In this document: positions 1 through 9,678 of the stretch, one piece after another
Layout: every line of letters starts with the position of its first letter
Position numbering within the stretch: the stretch's first letter is position 1
Virus record (IMG/VR): IMGVR_UViG_2534682162_000003
Span: 1 to 9,678 of that record
Direction: 5' to 3' (one strand)
From: a virus
Lineage: Duplodnaviria; Heunggongvirae; Uroviricota; Caudoviricetes
DNA: 9,678 nucleotides
Translations under genes and position numbers: made by a program
The notes under the pieces: generated by a model
Told to the model about the DNA's origin: nothing
What the model saw: the letters and a program-made list of their open reading frames with translations, nothing else
Databases searched by the model: none

Positions 1-333
1 GCGAAAATCTGCACTCCGGGCGCGGATGGTGACAACATCCGGCGCGCCCCGGTGTTCAACCTCATCAACGGTAAATTTCCCTTTGCATACCAGGGCAAAA
101 CCTTTCCAGCCGATATACACCGTCAGGACAGCGCCACGAACCGGCAGCCCGACCTGCCCGTCGGCATCGTTCAGTTCAATATCAAGCTGGTCAGCCTCAA
201 AGCCCCGGTTATCCGTCAGGGTCATGCTCATCAGACGGTCGCTGATATTGCCGGTAATATCCCTGCTGTCGAGCATCAGCATGTAATCCGGCGTCAGCGT
301 ACTGCCTGCATCAAATGTCAGCGTATCCAGCAT
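1..333 (-). CDS. D: Tail/baseplate protein D (phage late control gene D family), N-terminal 111 codons only; gene continues past the window start
   Basis: Minus-strand frame is open from the ATG at 333..331 to position 1 (hand-translated: MLDTLTFDAGSTLTPDYMLMLDSRDITGNISDRLMSMTLTDNRGFEADQLDIELNDADGQVGLPVRGAVLTVYIGWKGF...). Its start overlaps the U stop as TAATG (331..335). Position after U matches the P2 order T-U-D. Family assignment is from memory of gpD-like N-termini, not a search. Confidence 0.75.
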   Translation of the reverse strand, partial: MLDTLTFDAGSTLTPDYMLMLDSRDITGNISDRLMSMTLTDNRGFEADQLDIELNDADGQVGLPVRGAVLTVYIGWKGFALVCKGKFTVDEVEHRGAPDVVTIRARSADFR

Positions 334-812
334 TATCCCGCCCCCGTCATACCCGTGAATTTAGTTGCCATACTGCCCGCCTTACCGATGAGCGATTCCG
401 CCTGTTTACCGATATCGCCATAAAGCGCGGCCAGTGATTCATCAACGCGGGTAAGTGACAGCGTAAAATCAATTTTCCGGGGTGTGCCGTCTGCAAAGAA
501 AATACTCCCTGTTTCACTCACCCTGCTGATGACATACATGCCGTAAATCATGCCTGTGCCATCCAGCAACGGCCACGCCCGGCCTTCCTCAGCCATCAGC
601 CTGAGCGTGGTCATCGTCAGCTTGCCGCCGGTCAGTTCGGGATAAAGCACACCGGCAAGCGTGATATTTTCCTCGCCAACACCGAGAAACTGGTAGGCAT
701 CCCGTTTACCGATACGGGAATTTGACGGCCAGCGATAATCTGATTCACGCTGCATGGTCTGGTGTGGCAGCGTCTGGCGCATAAAAACAAACATACCTAA
801 CGCGAGCATCAT
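333..812 (-). CDS. U: Tail protein U (P2 gpU-like)
   Basis: 159-aa ORF, the length I recall for P2 gpU. AGGAGG Shine-Dalgarno at 819..824 (minus strand), overlapping the end of T. Sits between T and D as in P2. Confidence 0.85.
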   Translation of the reverse strand: MMLALGMFVFMRQTLPHQTMQRESDYRWPSNSRIGKRDAYQFLGVGEENITLAGVLYPELTGGKLTMTTLRLMAEEGRAWPLLDGTGMIYGMYVISRVSETGSIFFADGTPRKIDFTLSLTRVDESLAALYGDIGKQAESLIGKAGSMATKFTGMTGAG

Positions 813-826
813 TTTTCGTCACCTCC

Positions 827-3274
827 TTAACCGTCATGCATCATGCTGGCACGGGCGCGCGCACGTTTATCCCGCTCGTATTTTTCGAGCGCATCCTGTA
901 ACTGGCGGTCGAGCTGAGTCCCCGGCGCAGTACCGCCCGTCAGACTGATGTGATATTCGTTTTTACTCTGGTCCACATAAGAGCGGCCAGCCGGTGCCGT
1001 AACCGGCTGATAAGCCTGATAGCCTGCATAAGAGCTGGTCGCCGGAATATAACCACCGGTGCCATACGTGGCGGCATGAGTTCTGGCGGCGGTCTGGTCA
1101 AGCGTGCCTGACTCTTTGTTGATAACACCGAGTTTTTCCAGTACCCAGTCAATACCGCTGCGCAGTTTGTTGAACGCATTAAGCGGCAGCATCAACGCGT
1201 CAGCCAGTGCCTGCCCGAACATGACGCCAGTATCACGGCAACGGTTCAGGGTGTCCTGGGTGGCTTTGACCGGGGCAATCAGGTTTTTAAACCACTGCCA
1301 CGCGGCCTGTAACTTTTCGCCCAGCCAGTCAAACACCGGCTTAAGTGGCGTGAACAGTTCCCCCACCGGCGCAAATGCCGCTTTCAGCCCTTCCATCACA
1401 CCGCCAAAGAATGCGCTGACAGGCTCCCAGTATTTACGGATAAGCAACGCCCCGGCGACAATGGCGGCCACCACGGCCACAACCGGCCAGCTAATCGCCC
1501 CGATGGCAGTCATAACAGCACTGCCAACCGTCGTGAAGATTGCCCCCATTGCGCCTGCTGCCACGATGATGGCATTGATGCCGGTGATAACCGGCCAGGC
1601 TACAAGACCAATGGCACCGATGATGCCAGTAAGCGCCAGCGCGCCACCGGCAATTAGGCCAATGGTTGACGCCAGTGATTTGTTTTTCTGGATCCAGCCG
1701 TCGAGTTTTAACACATACTTTGTGGCCGTCTGCGTGAGCTTACGCAGTGCGCCTTCCTGCTGGTCAAACAGGTCAGTCCCCACCGCTTCATAAGCGGACT
1801 GAAACTCCTTAAAGTCACCGCCGAGGTTGTCCTGCATGATTTTAACCAGCTCTTCCGTTTTACCGTCTGAGGCTTTCAGTGTGGCGGTCAGCTTATCCAG
1901 TTTTCCGCTTGCAGCCGCTGCCAGTAAAACGTTCGCTGATTTCAGGGCTTCCTCACCAAAAATGGTTTTAAGGTATTCCCCCTTCTGAGACGTTCCCAGC
2001 TTGTGTTTATCAAAGCTGGCCTGAATCTCTTTCAGAATGGTGAACAACGGACGCATATTTCCCTTTTTGTCCGAGGTTTTAACGCCAAGCTCTTTGAGTG
2101 CATCCCATGCTTTTCCAGTCGGTGCCTGTAATCGGGTGACAACGGCACTGCCACCCGTACCCGCCATTGACCCCCTGATGTTATTGTCATGCAGCACACC
2201 TGTCATGGCCGCTGCCTGTTCAAGACTTACACCTGCCGTCCTCGCAACCGGACCGAGGTAAGTCAGTGCATCACTGAGTCCCTGAAAATCAGCCGCCGAC
2301 TTATTCATCGTTGCCGACAACACGTCGCCCACATGGCTGACATCATCATTTGACAGTTGAAAGGATGCCTTAGTCCCCAGCAACAGTTGCGCGTTTTCTT
2401 CCATCGACCGCTGATTCGCCAGTGCCATATTCAGCGTGACCGGCGTTGCCGCCTGAATAGCCGCAGCATCTCCACCCGCTTTCGCAATGATAATCTGCGC
2501 ACCGGCCGCATCATCCGCTGAGGCGGCGGTATTGTCGCCGAGCTGGCGCGCCTGTTTGCGGAGCGCGGCCATTTCGGCGGAATCTTTTGCCACACCGAGC
2601 ACGGCCTGCAATTCTGAGTTTTTCTGCGCAAACTCATAACCGGGCATCAGCAGCTTAACTCCGGCCATCGTTCCCGCCGCCGCAATCCCCACACCGGCAG
2701 CGCCCACTGAGGCCATATTTCCGGCAAGTTCTTTTCCTGCCTGATAACGCTGTTTGACTGCGTTAAGTTTTGCCTGTTGTGCACTGACACGCGCCAGCGC
2801 GTCACGCTGCCGGTTAAGCTGTGCGGTGGTTTCACTGATACGGTTTTTCAGCCCCTGCTCATCATGTGCAAGATTGCGGGTATTAATTCCCACAGCGGCC
2901 AGTTCCCGCTGCTGGCGTTTAACGGAATCCGTCAGGCGGTTATATTTCGCCTGTAAGTCCTCCGCCGCACGCTTTGCGGATTCCAGCACTTTCGCCTGAG
3001 CACGGGTCGGACGTTCAGTGTTTTTAAACTGTGTGGCAAGTGCTTCGGCCTCCTGCCGTGCCTTTTCAAGTGCATGACCAGTCACGGCAAGCTGTGCACT
3101 GGTCTTGCGAAATCCCTCAATACGGGATGCGTGACCATTCAGCTCGCGCAGTGATTTTTGTGTTTCCCGGATATCCCCCGACAGCGACTTACTCGCTGTG
3201 CGGATGGATTTAAACGGGCGGGATGCCTGGTCAACAGCCCTGAGCAATACCTGTAATTTTACATTGTTACTCAT
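827..3274 (-). CDS. T: Tail tape measure protein (P2 gpT-like)
   Basis: 815-aa ORF. N-terminal region is charged and Ala/Gln/Arg-rich (coiled-coil character), followed by long Gly/Ala-rich hydrophobic segments (e.g. LTGIIGAIGLVAWPVITGINAIIVAAGAMGAIF...), typical of tape measure proteins. Located directly downstream of the E/E' chaperone pair. Confidence 0.9.
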   Translation of the reverse strand: MSNNVKLQVLLRAVDQASRPFKSIRTASKSLSGDIRETQKSLRELNGHASRIEGFRKTSAQLAVTGHALEKARQEAEALATQFKNTERPTRAQAKVLESAKRAAEDLQAKYNRLTDSVKRQQRELAAVGINTRNLAHDEQGLKNRISETTAQLNRQRDALARVSAQQAKLNAVKQRYQAGKELAGNMASVGAAGVGIAAAGTMAGVKLLMPGYEFAQKNSELQAVLGVAKDSAEMAALRKQARQLGDNTAASADDAAGAQIIIAKAGGDAAAIQAATPVTLNMALANQRSMEENAQLLLGTKASFQLSNDDVSHVGDVLSATMNKSAADFQGLSDALTYLGPVARTAGVSLEQAAAMTGVLHDNNIRGSMAGTGGSAVVTRLQAPTGKAWDALKELGVKTSDKKGNMRPLFTILKEIQASFDKHKLGTSQKGEYLKTIFGEEALKSANVLLAAAASGKLDKLTATLKASDGKTEELVKIMQDNLGGDFKEFQSAYEAVGTDLFDQQEGALRKLTQTATKYVLKLDGWIQKNKSLASTIGLIAGGALALTGIIGAIGLVAWPVITGINAIIVAAGAMGAIFTTVGSAVMTAIGAISWPVVAVVAAIVAGALLIRKYWEPVSAFFGGVMEGLKAAFAPVGELFTPLKPVFDWLGEKLQAAWQWFKNLIAPVKATQDTLNRCRDTGVMFGQALADALMLPLNAFNKLRSGIDWVLEKLGVINKESGTLDQTAARTHAATYGTGGYIPATSSYAGYQAYQPVTAPAGRSYVDQSKNEYHISLTGGTAPGTQLDRQLQDALEKYERDKRARARASMMHDG

Positions 3275-3694
3275 TCGTGTTTCCGCTTCGCTGGAGCGCC
3301 TTTTCGCGCCATGTGATGAGTTCGGTCAGGCTCATGGGATACAGTTCTGATGGCGGCCAGTGAAATATCACTGCCACATCCGCCATCAGGTCATCTACCG
3401 ACAGATTTTTCGGAAACGTCACTGCACCGAGTTCGGCGACAAAAAACCGACCACCTTACCGGCCAGTTCCACAAGGTCAGGCAGTTCCATCGCGGCGACT
3501 TCCTGCTCGGTCAGCATCGGTGCCGTCATGCGCGGCAGCACCTTAATAAGTGCATCGACTTCGGAGTGTGCGACCGAAGCCAGACTGACACCGCGAAGCG
3601 TCCCGGCATTAGGTTTCATCAGCGTGACCTGTTTGATAACCTGCTCACCACGTTTGACCGGATTTTCCAGGGTAATCACATTTTCTTTGTTCAT
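3267..3694 (-). CDS. E': Tail assembly chaperone E+E' fusion made by programmed -1 ribosomal frameshift
   Basis: Hand-translated: after a -1 slip on T TTT TTG, the frame stays open for 58 codons (VAELGAVTFPKNLSVDDLMADVAVIFHWPPSELYPMSLTELITWREKALQRSGNTNE) and ends at TAA 3269..3267, overlapping the T start codon (3274..3272). This is the P2 arrangement, analogous to lambda G/GT. Confidence 0.65.
3419..3694 (-). CDS. E: Tail assembly chaperone E (P2 gpE-like)
   Basis: 91-aa ORF between FII and T. Contains the T TTT TTG slippery heptamer near its 3' end. Confidence 0.85.
   Translation of the reverse strand: MNKENVITLENPVKRGEQVIKQVTLMKPNAGTLRGVSLASVAHSEVDALIKVLPRMTAPMLTEQEVAAMELPDLVELAGKVVGFLSPNSVQ
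3440..3446 (-). promoter_or_regulatory. -1 frameshift slippery heptamer T TTT TTG (minus strand)
   Basis: Plus strand 3440..3448 reads caaaaaacc, so the minus strand reads ggttttttg. In the E reading frame this gives GGT TTT TTG, the canonical X XXY YYZ layout. Confidence 0.65.
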
Positions 3695-3750
3695 GGTTTT
3701 CTCACTTCTGAATCAGGGTTAACCGGTCAGCCAGGCTGACCGGATGAAAA

Positions 3751-4269
3751 TCACAGGCCGATATTGCGGCGGTGTTGCTCCAGCCGGTCGACGCCGTTCA
3801 CCTTCTCAATCATGTTGATGGTGTCGATTTCGACCAGCTCCTTACCGTCCATCGTCAGCCGGAAATAGGTGCAGACCACGGAGATTTTCGACTCGGTGTC
3901 TTCTCCCTGTTTGCCCTCGCCGGTGTCGATTTCTTTCTGACGTCCACGCATGACCACCTCGACGGCCACCGTTTCGCCGGTATCGTCACGCTGGTAAGAG
4001 CCTGCAAAACGAATCGGTACGGCATCCACACCGGTTGCGGCGTAAAGCTCCCAGATAACCGAATCCGGGAAGCCCCCGAGCGACCACTCCATTGACAGCG
4101 CATCGTCATCAAGGCCGAGGTCTACCGGTGCGCTGCCGTTCATCCCCGCACCGCGATAGTTTTCGAGCTTACGGGTCAGTTTTGGTAGCGTGACGGACTT
4201 CGCGACGCCCTGATAGCTGTAGCCGTTCAGAAAGACGTTCATTAACTTGAGTTTGCGCGGCATTGCCAT
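3751..4269 (-). CDS. FII: Tail tube protein (P2 gpFII-like)
   Basis: 172-aa ORF immediately downstream of the sheath gene. AGGAG Shine-Dalgarno at 4273..4277 (minus strand), overlapping the FI stop. Confidence 0.9.
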   Translation of the reverse strand: MAMPRKLKLMNVFLNGYSYQGVAKSVTLPKLTRKLENYRGAGMNGSAPVDLGLDDDALSMEWSLGGFPDSVIWELYAATGVDAVPIRFAGSYQRDDTGETVAVEVVMRGRQKEIDTGEGKQGEDTESKISVVCTYFRLTMDGKELVEIDTINMIEKVNGVDRLEQHRRNIGL

Positions 4270-4281
4270 CGGTCAGGCTCC

Positions 4282-5472
4282 TTAATTGCTGTTAACCGAG
4301 GTGACCAGATTTGCCAGGTATTTATCGGTAATACGCTGGCGCAGGGTCAGGTTTTCAAGAGGAGGCACCGGTGTATAGTCGTAGTCGATATACAGTTTTC
4401 CGGCCTTGAGGGTTTCCGCATCGTTGGATTCTTCGCTGAACCAGCAGGTCGCATCCACGATATAGCCGTTTGTTTTCAGCTCACGGAATTTGGCATTGAT
4501 GCCGTCAACGATGTCGCGAATCAGCGTTGCGGTGATGGGCTTGTCCACCGCCCACATGTGCGCCTCAGCCATCGTGTCGGCCAGCACCTGCGCGGTGCGG
4601 GTGTAGTTTTCAAAGAGGAACAGCGGGTCATCAGAGCAGGTACGGTTACCCCAGAAGCGGAAACCGTCGCGGCGAATCAGCGTAGTGACGCCTGACTCGT
4701 TAAGCAGGTCAGCATCGGTGCCGGACTCCTGCAAGTCCCAGAATACAGATGCGCTGATGCCGGTAACACCGTTCACCCCGACATTGGACAGCGTTTTATG
4801 CCAGCCCTGCTCCTGGTCGATTTTGGCACGCAGCCCCAGTGCACGGGCGGTTGCATACGCGGTGGCGGTGGTACTGGTGACCGTATCCCATGCGAGGAAA
4901 TCCGGCCAGATGACCATCAGCTCACGCTGGCTGAAATTCTGGCGGTAAGCTTTCACCTCGGAAATGGTTTTACAGCCCCATGCGCTGATATACCCGAAAG
5001 CGCGCAACTTCTGACAGACTGATGCCAGTGCAACAGCCACCTCTTTGGTATCCAGCCCCGGCACACCGAGAATACGCGGTTTAACACCGGTTACCGACTC
5101 CGCCGCCAGCAGGGCTTTCAGTCCGGTGTACTGGCCGTTTTCGTCGGTGGTGCCGATGATATTGGAAACGGTCTGCGCGAGTTTCGTTTCTTCGTCGTCG
5201 CCGGTTCCGTCTTCCACGCGCACGACAACGGTGACCGGTTTTGACTGGTCAGCGATGGCCTGCAACGATGCCGCCAGCGTGCCTTTTTTACCGGCCTTTG
5301 CAATGGCGCTCTGCACATTGGTAATCAGCACAGGTTTATTGAGGGGGAAGGTTTCCGCATCCGCATCGCTGGCCGTGCAGACCATGCCGACAATGGCAGT
5401 GGATACGGTGGAAATGACGCGGGTGCCGTCGTTAATCTCCAGCACCTGCACGCCGTGATGATAGTCACTCAT
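4282..5472 (-). CDS. FI: Contractile tail sheath protein (P2 gpFI-like)
   Basis: 396-aa ORF, first gene of the FI-FII-E-T-U-D block. GGAG Shine-Dalgarno at 5480..5483 (minus strand). Confidence 0.9.
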   Translation of the reverse strand: MSDYHHGVQVLEINDGTRVISTVSTAIVGMVCTASDADAETFPLNKPVLITNVQSAIAKAGKKGTLAASLQAIADQSKPVTVVVRVEDGTGDDEETKLAQTVSNIIGTTDENGQYTGLKALLAAESVTGVKPRILGVPGLDTKEVAVALASVCQKLRAFGYISAWGCKTISEVKAYRQNFSQRELMVIWPDFLAWDTVTSTTATAYATARALGLRAKIDQEQGWHKTLSNVGVNGVTGISASVFWDLQESGTDADLLNESGVTTLIRRDGFRFWGNRTCSDDPLFLFENYTRTAQVLADTMAEAHMWAVDKPITATLIRDIVDGINAKFRELKTNGYIVDATCWFSEESNDAETLKAGKLYIDYDYTPVPPLENLTLRQRITDKYLANLVTSVNSN

Positions 5473-5561
5473 CCGTTTAACTCCGTGGTTAATGGGTGCA
5501 ACTATTTTCTGTTGTGCAGTGCATGAGACGCTATTTGACCTGACTGGTCAGTGGATGAAAC
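5473..5561 (-). promoter_or_regulatory. Probable late promoter region for the FI-FII-E-T-U-D operon (P_F equivalent)
   Basis: About 90 bp lies between the minus-strand terminator and the FI start, and by synteny with P2 this is where the activator-dependent late promoter should be. I found no clean TGT-N12-ACA dyad by eye; only a short CTGAC-tg-GTCAG dyad at 5540..5551. Confidence 0.3.
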
Positions 5562-5596
5562 AACAGATAAAGAAAAGGCGGGCAATTCGCCCGCCT
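5562..5596 (-). terminator. Rho-independent terminator on the minus strand
   Basis: 8-bp GC-rich stem (5576..5583 aggcgggc pairing with 5589..5596 gcccgcct) with a 5-nt loop. On the minus strand it is followed by TTTCTTTATCTG (5575..5564). Confidence 0.55.
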
Positions 5597-5625
5597 GTCC
5601 TGATTTGTACTCACTCATTTTCCGC

Positions 5626-5660
5626 CTGACAATTTACATAGCCCAAATGCTATCAAATCT
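5626..5660 (+). promoter_or_regulatory. Candidate sigma70-type promoter for the cargo gene
   Basis: -35-like cTGACA at 5626..5631 and an extended -10-like TGcTATCAA at 5648..5656, with a 19-bp spacer (longer than optimal). Identified by eye only. Confidence 0.25.
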
Positions 5661-5692
5661 GACAGTCTGCTTTGAGCGAAAAGCAGACTGTC
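5661..5692. repeat. Perfect 13-bp inverted repeat with 6-nt spacer (GACAGTCTGCTTT gagcga AAAGCAGACTGTC)
   Basis: Read directly from the sequence: 5661..5673 is the exact reverse complement of 5680..5692. Lies about 115 bp upstream of the cargo start and just downstream of the candidate promoter. Confidence 0.6.
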
Positions 5693-5808
5693 ACGCGTTG
5701 AAGTTAATTGTATTACTTAGATAAACACTATCATTTTCCTGACGTTAAGTTGTATCTTTGATAGGATTAAAAAACGTATAGATAGCTTATGCTACTGAGG
5801 GAATAAAA

Positions 5809-6618
5809 ATGACGAAAATTAGTGAACGATGGAAGCACAATGGCATTACTGAAGGTTATTGCAATATTTGTGGGAAATATGGCTTGCTCACAAAAGATCA
5901 TGTTCCTCCAAAGTGCGCCATAACCTTAGGCCCTGTTTTGCAGAAAACAGTTAGCGAATTTTTTGGTATTCAGGAACCAGTTAAACCATTAAATGCTAAA
6001 AATGGCTCTTATTTCAGAACCATTTGCAGCCACTGTAACAATAAGGTATTAGGTGGGCTCGATGTTGCAATTGAAAATGTAACAAAGTCCTTTAAAGAAC
6101 AGTTAAGTCGATATATGAATGGTATGAATGTATATCCATTCATTAGAATACCTTTTGATAGCATATCTTTCACTAAGGCTATGATTGGGCACGTGCTATC
6201 AGCAACTTCAGTTGAAGATTGTAAAAAAGAACCCGTAGATAGCCCCTTCTATACACCTTTAAAGGATTATGTTTTGGGTAAAAATTCAAGTTTTGAGGAA
6301 ACTCATGATATTTACTACTGGTTTTACCCACACAGAATGCACATATCCGCTCAAAGTGTAGCATTTATGAACGAAGGACATGTGGCATTTATTTGTGCTT
6401 TACATTTTTTCCCTATCGGTTTTATTATCACAATGAAAAATGAAGGAACATACCCTGCCCACTCTACAAAATTAGAACTTGAAGATAAATTCCTTACATT
6501 TAATATGACCTCTATAAATTATGAGTATACGACATTTCCATTTGTAAATCTTAAGGGAAACCAAATGTATGCGATAAGCAACGGTCATACTTGTGTGAGT
6601 TATCCAATAATTAAGTGA
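5809..6618 (+). CDS. Hypothetical protein with N-terminal HNH-like zinc-finger nuclease motif; candidate anti-phage defence/exclusion cargo
   Basis: 269-aa ORF with a GAGGGA Shine-Dalgarno 6 nt upstream of the ATG. The translation contains C18-x2-C21, D30-H31-V-P-P and C74-S-H-C77-N-N-K80, matching the CxxC...DHxxP...CxxCNxxK pattern of HNH/His-Me finger nucleases. The remaining ~190 aa are aromatic-rich with no motif I recognise. Confidence 0.75.
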   Translation: MTKISERWKHNGITEGYCNICGKYGLLTKDHVPPKCAITLGPVLQKTVSEFFGIQEPVKPLNAKNGSYFRTICSHCNNKVLGGLDVAIENVTKSFKEQLSRYMNGMNVYPFIRIPFDSISFTKAMIGHVLSATSVEDCKKEPVDSPFYTPLKDYVLGKNSSFEETHDIYYWFYPHRMHISAQSVAFMNEGHVAFICALHFFPIGFIITMKNEGTYPAHSTKLELEDKFLTFNMTSINYEYTTFPFVNLKGNQMYAISNGHTCVSYPIIK

Positions 6619-6672
6619 CGGCTAAATCATACAATCTACGCATGTTCACTTTCTACATATACCATCTATAAT

Positions 6673-6722
6673 GTCCGCTGTTGGCACAGAGCGGACTGTC
6701 AGATCAGGCTTTACTCTGTGCC
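6673..6722. repeat. Overlapping inverted repeats between the cargo stop and the G stop
   Basis: GTCCGCT (6673..6679) pairs with AGCGGAC (6690..6696); GGCACAGAG (6683..6691) pairs with CTCTGTGCC (6714..6722). Neither is followed by a clean U-tract on either strand. Confidence 0.4.
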
Positions 6723-6757
6723 ATAGATATGTAAGCTCACACCAGAGCTCATACAAC

Positions 6758-7285
6758 TTATTGCGGCATTTCCGGCCATTCGGGATTTGCAGGATCCACA
6801 CGACTGACCAGAACGCTGTAGCGTTCCCATCTTTCCAGTCTGCTACGCTCCTCCTCTGTTGCCATATTCAGCCTGACAGCGCGCTCCAGCGGCAAAATCA
6901 CGGATTCAGCATCTGCAAGAAGTCTGGCTTTCCTGTTTTCTGCCTGCTGTTGCAATTCCTCTGCCGTATAAATTCGTTTGATCACTGTGCCATCCTTAAA
7001 CATCCAGTTCCCTGAAATATCCGCCCGTCGGTTAGCAGTAATATCCGCCACTTCAACAACACTTAATCCATCCGGTCTGATAGCTGTCACATCCTTTTCC
7101 ACATAGCGGATGATATTATCTTTGTCGTACGCTATTTTTATCGTGTCATCAGCAAAATACTTTTGTTCTTCGTACCAGTTCTTACCATCTTCTGAAAAAA
7201 ACCAGACAACATCAAAGTCCTTTGTCAATTGATATTGTTCAACCGTTTTTGGATTACCCGCCGTAATATTTTTTAAATGCTGCAT
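6758..7285 (-). CDS. G: Tail fiber assembly chaperone (P2 gpG-like)
   Basis: 175-aa ORF starting 3 nt after the H stop. C-terminal half is GC-rich and conserved-looking; N-terminal half is AT-rich. Confidence 0.85.
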
Positions 7286-7288
7286 AAA

Positions 7289-9367
7289 TTATACCTGCGC
7301 CACGTTATACCATGTCCCGTTAATGTATTTCTGCACCGGTCTGTAATATACGCCACCAATGTTATCGGCAGAGTTTGAGCCGGTATCCTGAACAATAATG
7401 CCGGTATATACACACCCGGACGGTGCCTGATGTGTCCATGTCATGCCATTGTTCGCAGGTTTGTATGTGGCGGCACCACCAAGCCGGATATCCCGGACAT
7501 AGCGGGAGTCAAAATTGCTGAAATTTGATGGTATCACCTGCCCGGTAACCCGTAGTGCATCAGACTTAAGCGTCATCAGGTCTTTTGTTGTGCTGCCAGA
7601 CCTGATGCGCCATTTAAAATATTCATTGCCATTATCACCAGTTTCAAACCACATGTATGAGTCAGAATCAGCATCTGAATCATTTTTAAATCCAATTTTC
7701 GCCCAGTCAGTGTTTCTTTCCCAAATCAGGAAGGCATCATTGATAAATTTTATGCTGCCTGACATGCTTCCGCCTGATAATGCCAGAGCAAGAATATCCG
7801 CAGGTGTTGGCTTTCGTGATGTGGTATAAAACTCTGACCAGTCAGCCTCAAATCCATACCCATCACGTGCCGACCTGTAAAAAATCCCCCTGTTTTTATA
7901 ATCCACAAGAAACTGCATTGCCGGACAACTTCCCTCACCCGTGTAAAAATGCAGCACCATTTTTGATGCTCCGCCATCCTGTGCACAATAAGCACCACTG
8001 TCCCAGTTCCATCCTACCGCTTTATTATTTGCAACCGTATTTCCTGTTTTCCCTAATGCAAAAGCCGGTTGCTTATTTTTCGTATTGTAGTCGCGTCGCC
8101 AGCCCGGCGCATAATCAGCTCCGTGATTGATATACGTGAATTGCGCACTGGTGGTACCACCACCGCTTGATGTACTCGGAGTGGTCACACGAATGGTCAT
8201 TGCAGCTTTAACGCCCATAACCTCAATCACGCAACCTGCAAGATGAATAGTCCCACAGTCAGTATCGGTAATAATTTTGTTATTACCGTATGACCAGGAA
8301 CACTTGCACATCCAGTAGGGATGATTAAAGGCTCCCTGAGACTCTAGCCAGTCAATAAACTGAGCGGTTGTCCAGTTTCCGGCGTCAGTGCTCAAAGCAC
8401 CGCTATAAGCACGACAGGCACCGATATTTTTCGTGAAAGTATCCTTTCCCGGAATATCCGCACCGTTCTGATCTTTCTGAAGACGTTTTTCAGCATTGTC
8501 ATAGGCAGACTTCACCGCTTTTGGTGTTGCCGCAAGCGTTTCAGAATCGCTGTTGGTGGCGCTACTGAGCTGGACAAGACCTTTTCGCGCTGTGGTGGCA
8601 TCCTGTGCAGTGTATTTCCCGTTAGCAAGGTCATACGCTGTCTTAACCGCCTTTGGCGTTGCCGCAAGCGTTTCAGAATCGCTGTTGGTGACGCTACTTA
8701 GCTGGACAAGGCCTTTTCGCGCGGTGGTGGCGTCCTGTGCGGTATATTTCCCGTTAGCAAGGTCATACGCGGCCTTTACCGCTTTCGGCGTTGCGGCCAG
8801 TGTTTCAGACGTGCTGTTGGTCGCACTGCTTAACTGAGTAAAACCTTTTGCGGTCAGCGAGGCGTCCGGGTGACGTCGTGACTGTTCGTGCTCTGCAATT
8901 TTGTCATCAACGTAATCCTGCGTCGCCATCACCGTTGTGGTGTCAATGGTCAGCTCCACTGAGGCCACACTGCTGACGATGATGACCATACGGCAGGTCT
9001 GCGAACGCCCTGAGCCTTCGGCAAGGGCAGGCTTATAACTTTCGGCCATGTTCGCCACGGCAATTAACGTTCCCGCATCATCGTACAGGCCAAGCTCACG
9101 CATCCAGAAACCGCCCACCTCCGGCGGAATAACCAGCTCTGCGATAATATAATTACTGTTTCGTTTGTCCTGGCTGATTTTGTTCAGCGCATGTCGCCAG
9201 ACTTCGTGGATAAGCCCGGTCTGTCCGGCATCCGGGACAGGCAATTTACCACCGCCATCCCCGACGGCCATCGTGGTAATGTTGACCTTCCGCCCTCCCG
9301 GCGCGGTTGCCGCTGCCAGCTTTGCTGCACCGGCAGTGGTGATAACGGTTCTGAATTTTGTGCTCAT
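7289..9367 (-). CDS. H: Tail fiber protein (P2 gpH-like)
   Basis: 692-aa ORF. The N-terminus (MSTKFRTVITTAGAAKLAAATAPGG...) resembles what I recall of P2 gpH. Contains three tandem 44-aa repeats. The C-terminal ~350 aa are lower in GC and Cys/Trp/Tyr-rich, consistent with a receptor-binding domain. Confidence 0.9.
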   Translation of the reverse strand: MSTKFRTVITTAGAAKLAAATAPGGRKVNITTMAVGDGGGKLPVPDAGQTGLIHEVWRHALNKISQDKRNSNYIIAELVIPPEVGGFWMRELGLYDDAGTLIAVANMAESYKPALAEGSGRSQTCRMVIIVSSVASVELTIDTTTVMATQDYVDDKIAEHEQSRRHPDASLTAKGFTQLSSATNSTSETLAATPKAVKAAYDLANGKYTAQDATTARKGLVQLSSVTNSDSETLAATPKAVKTAYDLANGKYTAQDATTARKGLVQLSSATNSDSETLAATPKAVKSAYDNAEKRLQKDQNGADIPGKDTFTKNIGACRAYSGALSTDAGNWTTAQFIDWLESQGAFNHPYWMCKCSWSYGNNKIITDTDCGTIHLAGCVIEVMGVKAAMTIRVTTPSTSSGGGTTSAQFTYINHGADYAPGWRRDYNTKNKQPAFALGKTGNTVANNKAVGWNWDSGAYCAQDGGASKMVLHFYTGEGSCPAMQFLVDYKNRGIFYRSARDGYGFEADWSEFYTTSRKPTPADILALALSGGSMSGSIKFINDAFLIWERNTDWAKIGFKNDSDADSDSYMWFETGDNGNEYFKWRIRSGSTTKDLMTLKSDALRVTGQVIPSNFSNFDSRYVRDIRLGGAATYKPANNGMTWTHQAPSGCVYTGIIVQDTGSNSADNIGGVYYRPVQKYINGTWYNVAQV
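8490..8880. repeat. Tandem 132-bp repeats (three copies plus a partial) inside H
   Basis: Repeat units begin at about 8526, 8658 and 8790 (period 132 bp), with a degenerate partial copy near 8490. They encode the 44-aa repeat LSSxTNSxSETLAATPKAVKxAYDLANGKYTAQDATTARKG. Confidence 0.85.
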
Positions 9368-9377
9368 TATTCCTCAC

Positions 9378-9678
9378 TTATCCGGGGTAAACCGTAATTA
9401 CATCGCCGTCGTAAGCCACACCACCGGCGAACAGGTAGCCGGGAATGTCCCGGGTAATGTTCAGGCCAATAAGGTGGCGACTTGCAGGTTTGGCATCAGC
9501 AATCAGCCGTTCCATTTCCTGATACATTGCCTCTGTGATGCCGCTTTCCAGTACACCAATATCAAGCCTGAAGGTGCCTGGCGGGTCACTGTTTTCCCAC
9601 CACTCCGTCACGTTGATGAGATAGCCGAGCGGCTCCACCACACGCCGGATTGCGCCGATAGTGCCTTTATGACAGTGG
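9378..9678 (-). CDS. I: Baseplate assembly protein (P2 gpI-like), C-terminal part; gene continues past the window end
   Basis: Minus-strand frame is open from the window end (9678) to the stop at 9378..9380. The stop is followed by a GAGGA Shine-Dalgarno and the H start. Position upstream of H matches the P2 order I-H-G. Confidence 0.7.
   Translation of the reverse strand, partial: HCHKGTIGAIRRVVEPLGYLINVTEWWENSDPPGTFRLDIGVLESGITEAMYQEMERLIADAKPASRHLIGLNITRDIPGYLFAGGVAYDGDVITVYPG

Follow-up and report, generated by a model that had tools for sequence, protein, structure and literature searches.

The window analysed here is a 9,678-nucleotide (nt) stretch of DNA from a virus of the class Caudoviricetes (IMG/VR record IMGVR_UViG_2534682162_000003, positions 1 to 9,678). 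It carries the late region of a P2-like phage with a low-GC cargo gene lying between the tail fibre assembly gene G and the tail sheath gene FI. We find that this cargo is enclosed by two short palindromic sites, each built as two 12-nt arms around a 6-nt centre (12-6-12), and that the two sites are inverted copies of one another save for their central 6 nt. Comparison with other loci identifies them, at the level of sequence, as the junctions at which cassettes are exchanged, both from one P2-like phage to another and across P2-like phages, lambdoid prophages and plasmids. On balance we lean towards a fuller reading, in which cassettes would be swapped by double crossover at paired 12-6-12 sites with heterospecific centres, through a tyrosine-recombinase-like enzyme acting in trans.

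Two palindromic sites enclose the cargo

The boundary sites, their backbone extensions and spacers, and the exchanged unit that they delimit are as follows, none having an assigned strand.

5598–5656: docking-module spacer, left side; columns at least 90% conserved over 30 cargo types, missing from empty sites
5657–5664: ATCTGACA, P2-backbone extension of the inverted repeat, pairing with 6697–6704; conserved in P2 loci, other sequence in lambdoid and plasmid contexts
5662–5691: left boundary site, 12-6-12, with outer arm ACAGTCTGCTTT (5662–5673), centre GAGCGA (5674–5679) and inner arm AAAGCAGACTGT (5680–5691); palindrome 5660–5693, contains the left 12-mer described below
5665–6696: exchanged cassette, comprising both 24-nt hairpins and the cargo; delimited by BLAST match extents in lambdoid prophages and IncF plasmids
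6670–6699: right boundary site, 12-6-12, with inner arm AATGTCCGCTGT (6670–6681), centre TGGCAC (6682–6687) and outer arm AGAGCGGACTGT (6688–6699); inverted repeat, contains the right 12-mer described below
6697–6704: TGTCAGAT, P2-backbone extension of the inverted repeat, pairing with 5657–5664; defined by a repeat finder, P2 column profiles and lambdoid junctions
6705–6757: docking-module spacer, right side; conserved among P2-like phages with cargo, with homology to the lambdoid hotspot flank

The left site lies in a perfect 14-6-14 palindrome (5660–5673 and 5680–5693), and the right site contains the hairpin GTCCGCT-N10-AGCGGAC (6673–6696). Over 30 P2 cargo types the left consensus is NAYGTCYGCTTT-GAGCGA-RRAGCRGACRTT and the right consensus AAYGTCCGCTNT-TGGCAC-AAAGCGGACRTN; the right centre reads GTGCCA when inverted. 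The 59-nt and 53-nt spacers were considered as further parts of the inverted repeat and rejected, as comparison shows no inverted relation between them.

An earlier note on this DNA, made from the sequence alone, had described a near-identical direct 12-mer repeat on both sides of the cargo gene. Its component observations hold: GCAGACTGTCAC (5683–5694) and GCGGACTGTCAG (6691–6702) agree at 10 of 12 positions on one strand, the reverse complement of GACTGTC is found at 5661–5667, and both 12-mers lie inside inverted repeats, the left within the 14-6-14 palindrome and the right within the hairpin at 6673–6696. 'Direct repeat', however, is the wrong description of what is actually an imperfect 32–35-nt inverted repeat of two palindromic sites (5657–5691 versus 6670–6704), of which a 32-nt part recovered by a repeat finder is 81% complementary (5657–5688 versus 6673–6704). 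The apparent direct match exists only by virtue of the palindromic left arm, whose two strands read alike. Within the two 12-mers, the TGTCAC half of the left one is cargo-specific, being present in lambdoid and plasmid copies and absent at the left junction of other P2-like phages, and the TGTCA of the right one is part of the P2 backbone. On its cargo side, the left site of the window is flanked by TGTCA instead of the usual RTT, a copy of the P2-backbone flank of the right site (GAC-TGTCAGAT); this copy is the source of the direct repeat first noticed and may be the trace of an earlier rearrangement of the cassette.

Homology among P2-like phages breaks at the sites

We compared the window with seven GenBank P2-like phages carrying other cargo, one with an empty site, and 80 IMG/VR loci recovered via the FI protein. 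Both repeats occupy fixed distances from FI and G in 48 loci (window counted), which represent 30 unrelated cargo clusters and range in G–FI intergenic distance from 1144 to 4404 nt. On the left, alignment columns are at least 90% conserved through flank and repeat as far as ...AGCRGAC followed by RTT, and on the right they are at least 90% conserved from AAY followed by GTCCGCT... outward. Inside these limits column conservation is about 30%, the random level, and this level is reached within 1–3 nt. The junction alignment that the earlier note had proposed thus has its homology breaks 1–3 nt from the motifs in 30 cargo types. The suggestion that the motifs mark recombination junctions of the cassette holds; what fails is the description of the repeat, which is inverted and not direct, and half of the left 12-mer is cargo-specific.

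The motif GACTGTCA is not common elsewhere: the complete Wphi genome holds five copies against 0.78 expected, two of them at the junction sites. Within 13-kb P2 loci the site core is limited to the two junctions, the exceptions being one locus with a third site and apparently two cassettes (L071) and another with an extra site (L045). Phages with an empty site, in which 127–133 nt separate FI from G, have neither the sites nor the 59-nt and 53-nt spacers. A wider search with the 15-mer ATCTGACAGTCYGCT over 596 Gb of genome contigs yielded chance matches from unrelated phyla, the pattern being too short, and L089–L208 were left out.

Each of the 30 P2 cargo clusters shows one orientation, with no cargo seen both ways round. 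An invertible segment of the Gin/Cin/Hin type was rejected on this ground together with the lack of an invertase in the window, the lack of likeness to gix or hix reference sequences and the existence of invertase-bearing P2-like loci without sites. In those loci, about 15 of the 80 (L010, L011, L021, L023 and others), the end of a DNA invertase gene abuts the FI promoter region, the spacer-and-site module is replaced and boundary sites are missing; they are an alternative architecture of the same hotspot, of the invertible tail-fibre type. In phage pro147 (L001, locus about 640–700 versus window 5650–5733), which carries the same cargo as the window, the whole left site is deleted between CTATCA direct repeats (window 5650 and 5727), so the cassette is able to persist without its left site.

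The same cassette and sites occur in lambdoid prophages and plasmids

Window segment 5640–6720 is matched at 80% coverage or more in 136 of 5426 complete Escherichia coli genomes. Among plasmids it has hits in 58 records, of which 49 reach this coverage; most are conjugative plasmids of the IncF type, from Escherichia, Shigella and Klebsiella. The chromosomal copies have hokD on one side and a DUF977 gene on the other, in lambdoid prophages of the Rac/Qin type, and the plasmid copies adjoin IS26; cassette identity is 99.5% in these prophages and in IncF plasmids. BLAST alignments extend from window 5664/5665 to 6692/6696 (query 25/26 to 1053/1057), that is, from outer edge to outer edge of the 24-nt hairpins. 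Outside these edges the flanks are wholly different: ATCTGACA on the left and TGTCAGAT on the right in P2, TTTCTA and AACCACGC in the lambdoid context, and GCTAAT and GCCCACTC in the plasmids.

The lambdoid hokD/DUF977 locus is itself a hotspot with the same two sites, where flank homology ends in thousands of genomes. Other cargo there includes a DUF5677 protein, with junctions GAC/GTT...AAT/GACCACT (slashes mark the breaks). When viral contigs were scanned for the right-type site, 62 of 80 loci lay in the hokD/DUF977 context, with at least 17 different site-to-site distances, and about 17 other backbone flanks came to light. With a synthetic flank-to-flank sequence as query, none of the 5426 E. 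coli genomes gave an empty or single-site lambdoid locus; the shortest interval between flanks is 272 nt and retains both sites.

Local alignment of the right spacer (6705–6757) to the lambdoid flank gives a score of 36, reached by none of 1000 shuffles, and this distant homology argues for a common origin of the docking module in both phage families. The right spacers of the P2 and lambdoid backbones are about 65–70% identical and the sites are at least 90% conserved; conservation of the sites while the adjoining right spacer diverged argues for selection on the sites. Between the left spacers of P2 and lambdoid loci no significant similarity was found. The sequence TGTGCCA, complementary to the centre of the right site, occurs in both the P2 right spacer and the lambdoid flank (L212:10034–10100) and is possibly a degenerate third site.

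Two IMG/VR contigs carry arrays of four to six boundary-type sites (L226:979–3960 and L257:310–1360). In the first, sites separate a TIR-domain gene (CAP12/Pycsar-type) from a GNAT acetyltransferase. The second resembles a phage satellite, with integrase, DUF5906, capsid protein and small terminase genes, and has four sites in one orientation, 90–540 nt apart. A near-identity search found no near match to either contig among GenBank phages.

Crossovers fall inside the sites

Cassettes held by both phage families reveal which parts of each site travel with the cargo. Lambdoid loci contain six of the 30 P2 cargo types (k-mer sharing 0.86–1.0). In none of these six does the inner arm or the 6-nt centre differ between the two backbones, and even the rare centre GAGTGA travels with its cargo. 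The left outer arm, in all six, is backbone-specific, reading GTCTGCT in P2 and GTCCGCT in lambdoid loci, and the right outer arm is likewise backbone-specific (G/A at 6689), with ...CACAG or CACAT in P2 and ...CACAA in lambdoid loci. Because inner arm and centre go with the cargo and the outer arm with the backbone, the exchange points are placed inside the sites, in a window of about 8 nt for the left site and about 12 nt for the right. These windows include the 6-nt centre, and the resolution is no finer.

Plasmids provide a further junction: a 2.7-kb difference between two IncF-type plasmids (L209 and L210) has its join exactly at TTGGCACA, in a site centre. The 2.7-kb segment (locus 5009–7780), present in L210 and L211 and not in L209, encodes a complete 200-amino-acid (aa) tyrosine recombinase of FimB size (WP_001752951.1) and a 476-aa protein without a family match. 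The third site of L209, at 8682, follows DUF2254-betT and lies upstream of relB. The recombinase, whose gene ends 20 nt from a half-site in L210 and L211, was considered as the general enzyme of these sites and dropped, because tblastn against phages returned distant relatives only, at no more than 58% identity and mostly from Gram-positive phages.

A model of cassette exchange and its alternatives

In the reading that we favour, exchange would take place by double crossover when two replicons share a cell, the left sites recombining with each other and the right sites likewise, making it a natural counterpart of recombinase-mediated cassette exchange. The differing centres (GAGCGA versus TGGCAC) would stop one site of a cassette from recombining with the other, which fits two observations: cargo orientation is fixed, and single-site 'empty' loci are absent. 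The 12-6-12 form of the sites points to a conservative, tyrosine-recombinase-like protein, supplied in trans, as the putative enzyme. A wider version of this proposal is more tentative. There, heterospecific 12-6-12 docking pairs in P2-like phages, lambdoid prophages, satellite-like elements and plasmids would make up a general cassette-exchange system of enterobacterial mobile elements, with a putative trans-acting recombinase or host factor swapping defence and accessory genes by double site-specific exchange. That such a system is functionally integron-like without an integron is, in our view, likewise possible rather than probable.

Several observations count against enzyme-driven double crossover. 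No recombinase was found among the window's open reading frames (ORFs) or by Pfam, where transposase, invertase and integrase/intI genes were also lacking, and the L210 enzyme has no close relatives in enterobacterial phages. Alignments of the sites to reference sequences for dif, cer, gix, hix, loxP, sfx and the P2 attP core were no better than those of shuffles. Junctions are degenerate or displaced in some lambdoid loci (L215 and L216). Strict pairing of left with right is broken in the arrays, where two left-type sites surround one gene in L226 and all four sites of L257 face one way, so heterospecific pairing is not universal. Finally, crossover windows of 8–12 nt suit short-homology recombination anywhere in the 24–30-nt site equally well.

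This last point counts towards the strongest alternative, in which the sites are conserved linkers and homologous recombination, ordinary or relaxed (RecA, or annealing of the Red/RecET type), swaps cassettes over the 24–35 nt shared on each side, with no dedicated enzyme. The lambdoid partners encode recombination genes of the RecE/exonuclease type, lambda Red works with homologies of about 30–50 nt, and relaxed recombination by Rad52-like phage recombinases is reportedly documented; the failure of a recombinase candidate to turn up also speaks for this explanation. It leaves unexplained the palindromic form and mutual inversion of the linkers, the conservation of at least 90% in sites lying beside diverging spacers, and the nucleotide-identical inner boundary in at least 30 unrelated cargos, and P2-like phages are not known to have a Red-type system. 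We regard it as a real possibility, though a doubtful one. How a new gene is first placed exactly between two inner arms is explained neither by short homology nor by double crossover.

A second alternative, improbable on present evidence, takes the hairpins as regulatory or insulating elements that every cargo needs (terminators, RNA-stability elements or operators), with sharp boundaries reflecting selection against damage. Both sites can form hairpins and lie between convergent or divergent transcription units, and as DNA the left one folds at −14.6 kcal/mol (z score −5.8). The right hairpin is weak (−7.3 kcal/mol, z score −1.6), however, and a terminator scan finds neither site, the real terminator lying outside at 5576–5596. 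We do not call the sites terminators because they have no T tail. They match no Rfam family at E values up to 1 save for one chance snoRNA; variation in the 7-bp stems is almost entirely one-sided, giving mismatches with almost no compensatory changes; and pro147 keeps the same cargo without the whole left site. Breakpoints scattered within the cargo region would also be expected, and none are seen. The matched regulatory sites that the earlier note offered as an option are accordingly unsupported.

Slightly less probable still is that 5665–6696 constitutes a non-autonomous transposon-like element, akin to a miniature inverted-repeat transposable element (MITE), whose 24-nt terminal inverted repeats are mobilized in trans by a putative transposase. 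Homology between contexts does stop exactly where the shared unit ends, at the outer edges of its two terminal 24-nt inverted repeats, which match at 20 of 24 positions, and viral contigs supply at least 18 backbone flanks. Yet there are no target-site duplications or flanking direct repeats at the P2, lambdoid or plasmid junctions, different cargos occupy exactly one position in each backbone, and the window has no transposase nearby. The backbone-specific outer arms (T/C and G/A, six of six shared cassettes) indicate that these arms stay behind and do not move.

That the 12-mer match is a meaningless chance similarity has next to no credibility: the 7-mer core alone is only mildly enriched in the window (three matches versus 0.82 expected, three being reached by 10 of 200 shuffles), but the 12-mer with up to two mismatches has five matches versus 0.67 expected, a count reached by none of 200 dinucleotide-preserving shuffles, three of the five sit at the two junctions, and the motif lies within a 32-nt inverted repeat conserved at fixed positions in dozens of related loci.

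Relation to earlier work and to known systems

A 2026 survey of P2 and P4 hotspots in Nucleic Acids Research says of the recombination behind defence-gene swapping, in particular with unrelated mobile elements, that its processes 'still need to be elucidated', and it weighs transposons, homologous recombination and illegitimate recombination without mentioning boundary sites (PMC13586616). Such sites are not mentioned in the iLund4u preprint either, in which the G/FI intergenic position is the classical Z/fun hotspot, and a search of Rousset 2022 for repeats and hairpins gave nothing relevant. For the G/FI hotspot, our results offer a concrete and testable answer, namely that exchange with lambdoid prophages and plasmids is bounded by two short palindromic sites, with crossovers inside them. 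The sites are a neglected, well-delimited handle on the movement of accessory and defence genes between unrelated phages and plasmids, and they allow cassette boundaries in P2-like and lambdoid prophages to be annotated with nucleotide precision. If a dedicated enzyme exists, it would represent a new horizontal-transfer route for phage-defence and other accessory genes, and the site pair could be used as a natural landing pad for engineering.

Boundary repeats at this locus are already known in outline, because a 2022 review attributes to Nilsson et al. 2004 the inverted repeats that flank the Z/fun gene in P2-like coliphages (PMC8987985). As presented in the review, those repeats lie at the same G/FI locus and, as here, flank a variable low-GC ORF in inverted orientation; the same ORFs and repeats occur in bacterial genomes, a counterpart to the lambdoid prophages and IncF plasmids described above; and site-specific recombination is the proposed mechanism, as it is here. 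We claim no novelty over the 2004 work for the 12-6-12 form, the differing centres, the nucleotide-level breakpoints, the hokD/DUF977 locus, the IncF copies or the crossover mapping.

Sites with inverted arms of about 11–13 bp around a centre of 6–8 bp are the core sites of tyrosine recombinases (the dif, lox and FRT class), and the 12-6-12 boundary sites fit this form. Among natural systems, pdif modules of Acinetobacter plasmids carry cargo flanked by inverted XerC/XerD sites and share with the cassettes here their discrete accessory modules, paired palindromic inverted sites of about 28 bp and identical boundaries in different replicons. They differ in that our sites have no likeness to dif or cer reference sequences and have arms unrelated to the XerC/XerD binding arms. 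Engineered recombinase-mediated cassette exchange uses heterospecific lox or FRT sites, and the parallel is close: the arms are the same and the centres different, a double crossover swaps the segment, and there is no excision or inversion in cis. That system, however, is artificial and its enzyme known, whereas heterospecificity would here follow from the differing centres.

Integrons also resemble the system in their promoter-independent single-gene cassettes, nucleotide-precise limits at imperfect palindromes, often defence-related cargo and arrays (as in L226). By contrast, each cassette here has two inverted sites of about 30 nt where integron cassettes have one direct attC of 57–141 nt with RYYYAAC...GTTRRRY cores; there is no GTTRRRY core, with only RTT/AAY conserved beyond the arms, and no intI in the window. 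Lambdoid 'morons' are accessory genes of foreign composition between backbone genes, and conserved sequences at module boundaries are said to have been proposed, in work associated with Hendrix/Juhala and with Clark et al. 2001, to guide recombination. Foreign-composition genes between backbone genes and short conserved junction sequences are features common to those cases and ours, but the junctions here are defined palindromic sites shared by P2-like and lambdoid families, and not terminators.

The cargo gene and its surroundings

The ORF list, GC content and Pfam matches identify the window as the reversed late region of a P2-like phage (Peduovirus). Genes run in the order H (9367–7289), G (7285–6758), cargo (5809–6618, opposite strand) and FI (5472–4282), followed by FII, E, T and U, and synteny with pro147, Wphi, L-413C and fiAA91-ss places the locus between G and FI.

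4282–5472, minus strand: FI, tail sheath gene, left backbone gene of the hotspot; Pfam Phage_sheath_1, Phage_sheath_1C and Gp18_domIII_N, annotated FI in related phages
5576–5596, minus strand: intrinsic terminator of the upstream late operon, outside the cassette; sole terminator-like site in 5400–6850, DNA hairpin −11.1 kcal/mol, z score −4.2
5809–6618, plus strand: cargo ORF, 269 aa, low GC, from the ORF list; protein identical to WP_000161640.1
6758–7285, minus strand: G, tail fibre assembly gene, right backbone gene of the hotspot; Pfam Caudo_TAP at E 9e-34, annotated G in related phages

The cargo region has a GC content of 0.32–0.38 versus 0.5–0.6 in the flanks. The cargo protein had no match in Pfam, PADLOC, NCBIfam or PDB sequence searches, and its sole family match is to phrog_21495 (PHROGs), of unknown function. 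Its N terminus carries a CxxC...DHVPPK...CxxCN pattern that looks HNH-like or zinc-finger-like by eye. The protein is widespread all the same, in 136 E. coli genomes and 58 plasmid records.

The terminator at 5576–5596 is kept in five empty-site loci (L008, L015, L037, L039 and L077). Overlapping both this terminator and the left boundary site is a 57-aa ORF (5551–5724, plus strand), at a position where relatives have a short annotated 'hypothetical protein' (for example, pro147 ORF8); it is probably not a gene. On the other side of the cassette, GC content falls to 0.35–0.41 at 7000–7300, covering the 5′ part of G and the H/G junction, versus 0.5–0.6 in neighbouring late genes, which suggests a separately exchanged tail-fibre or assembly module.

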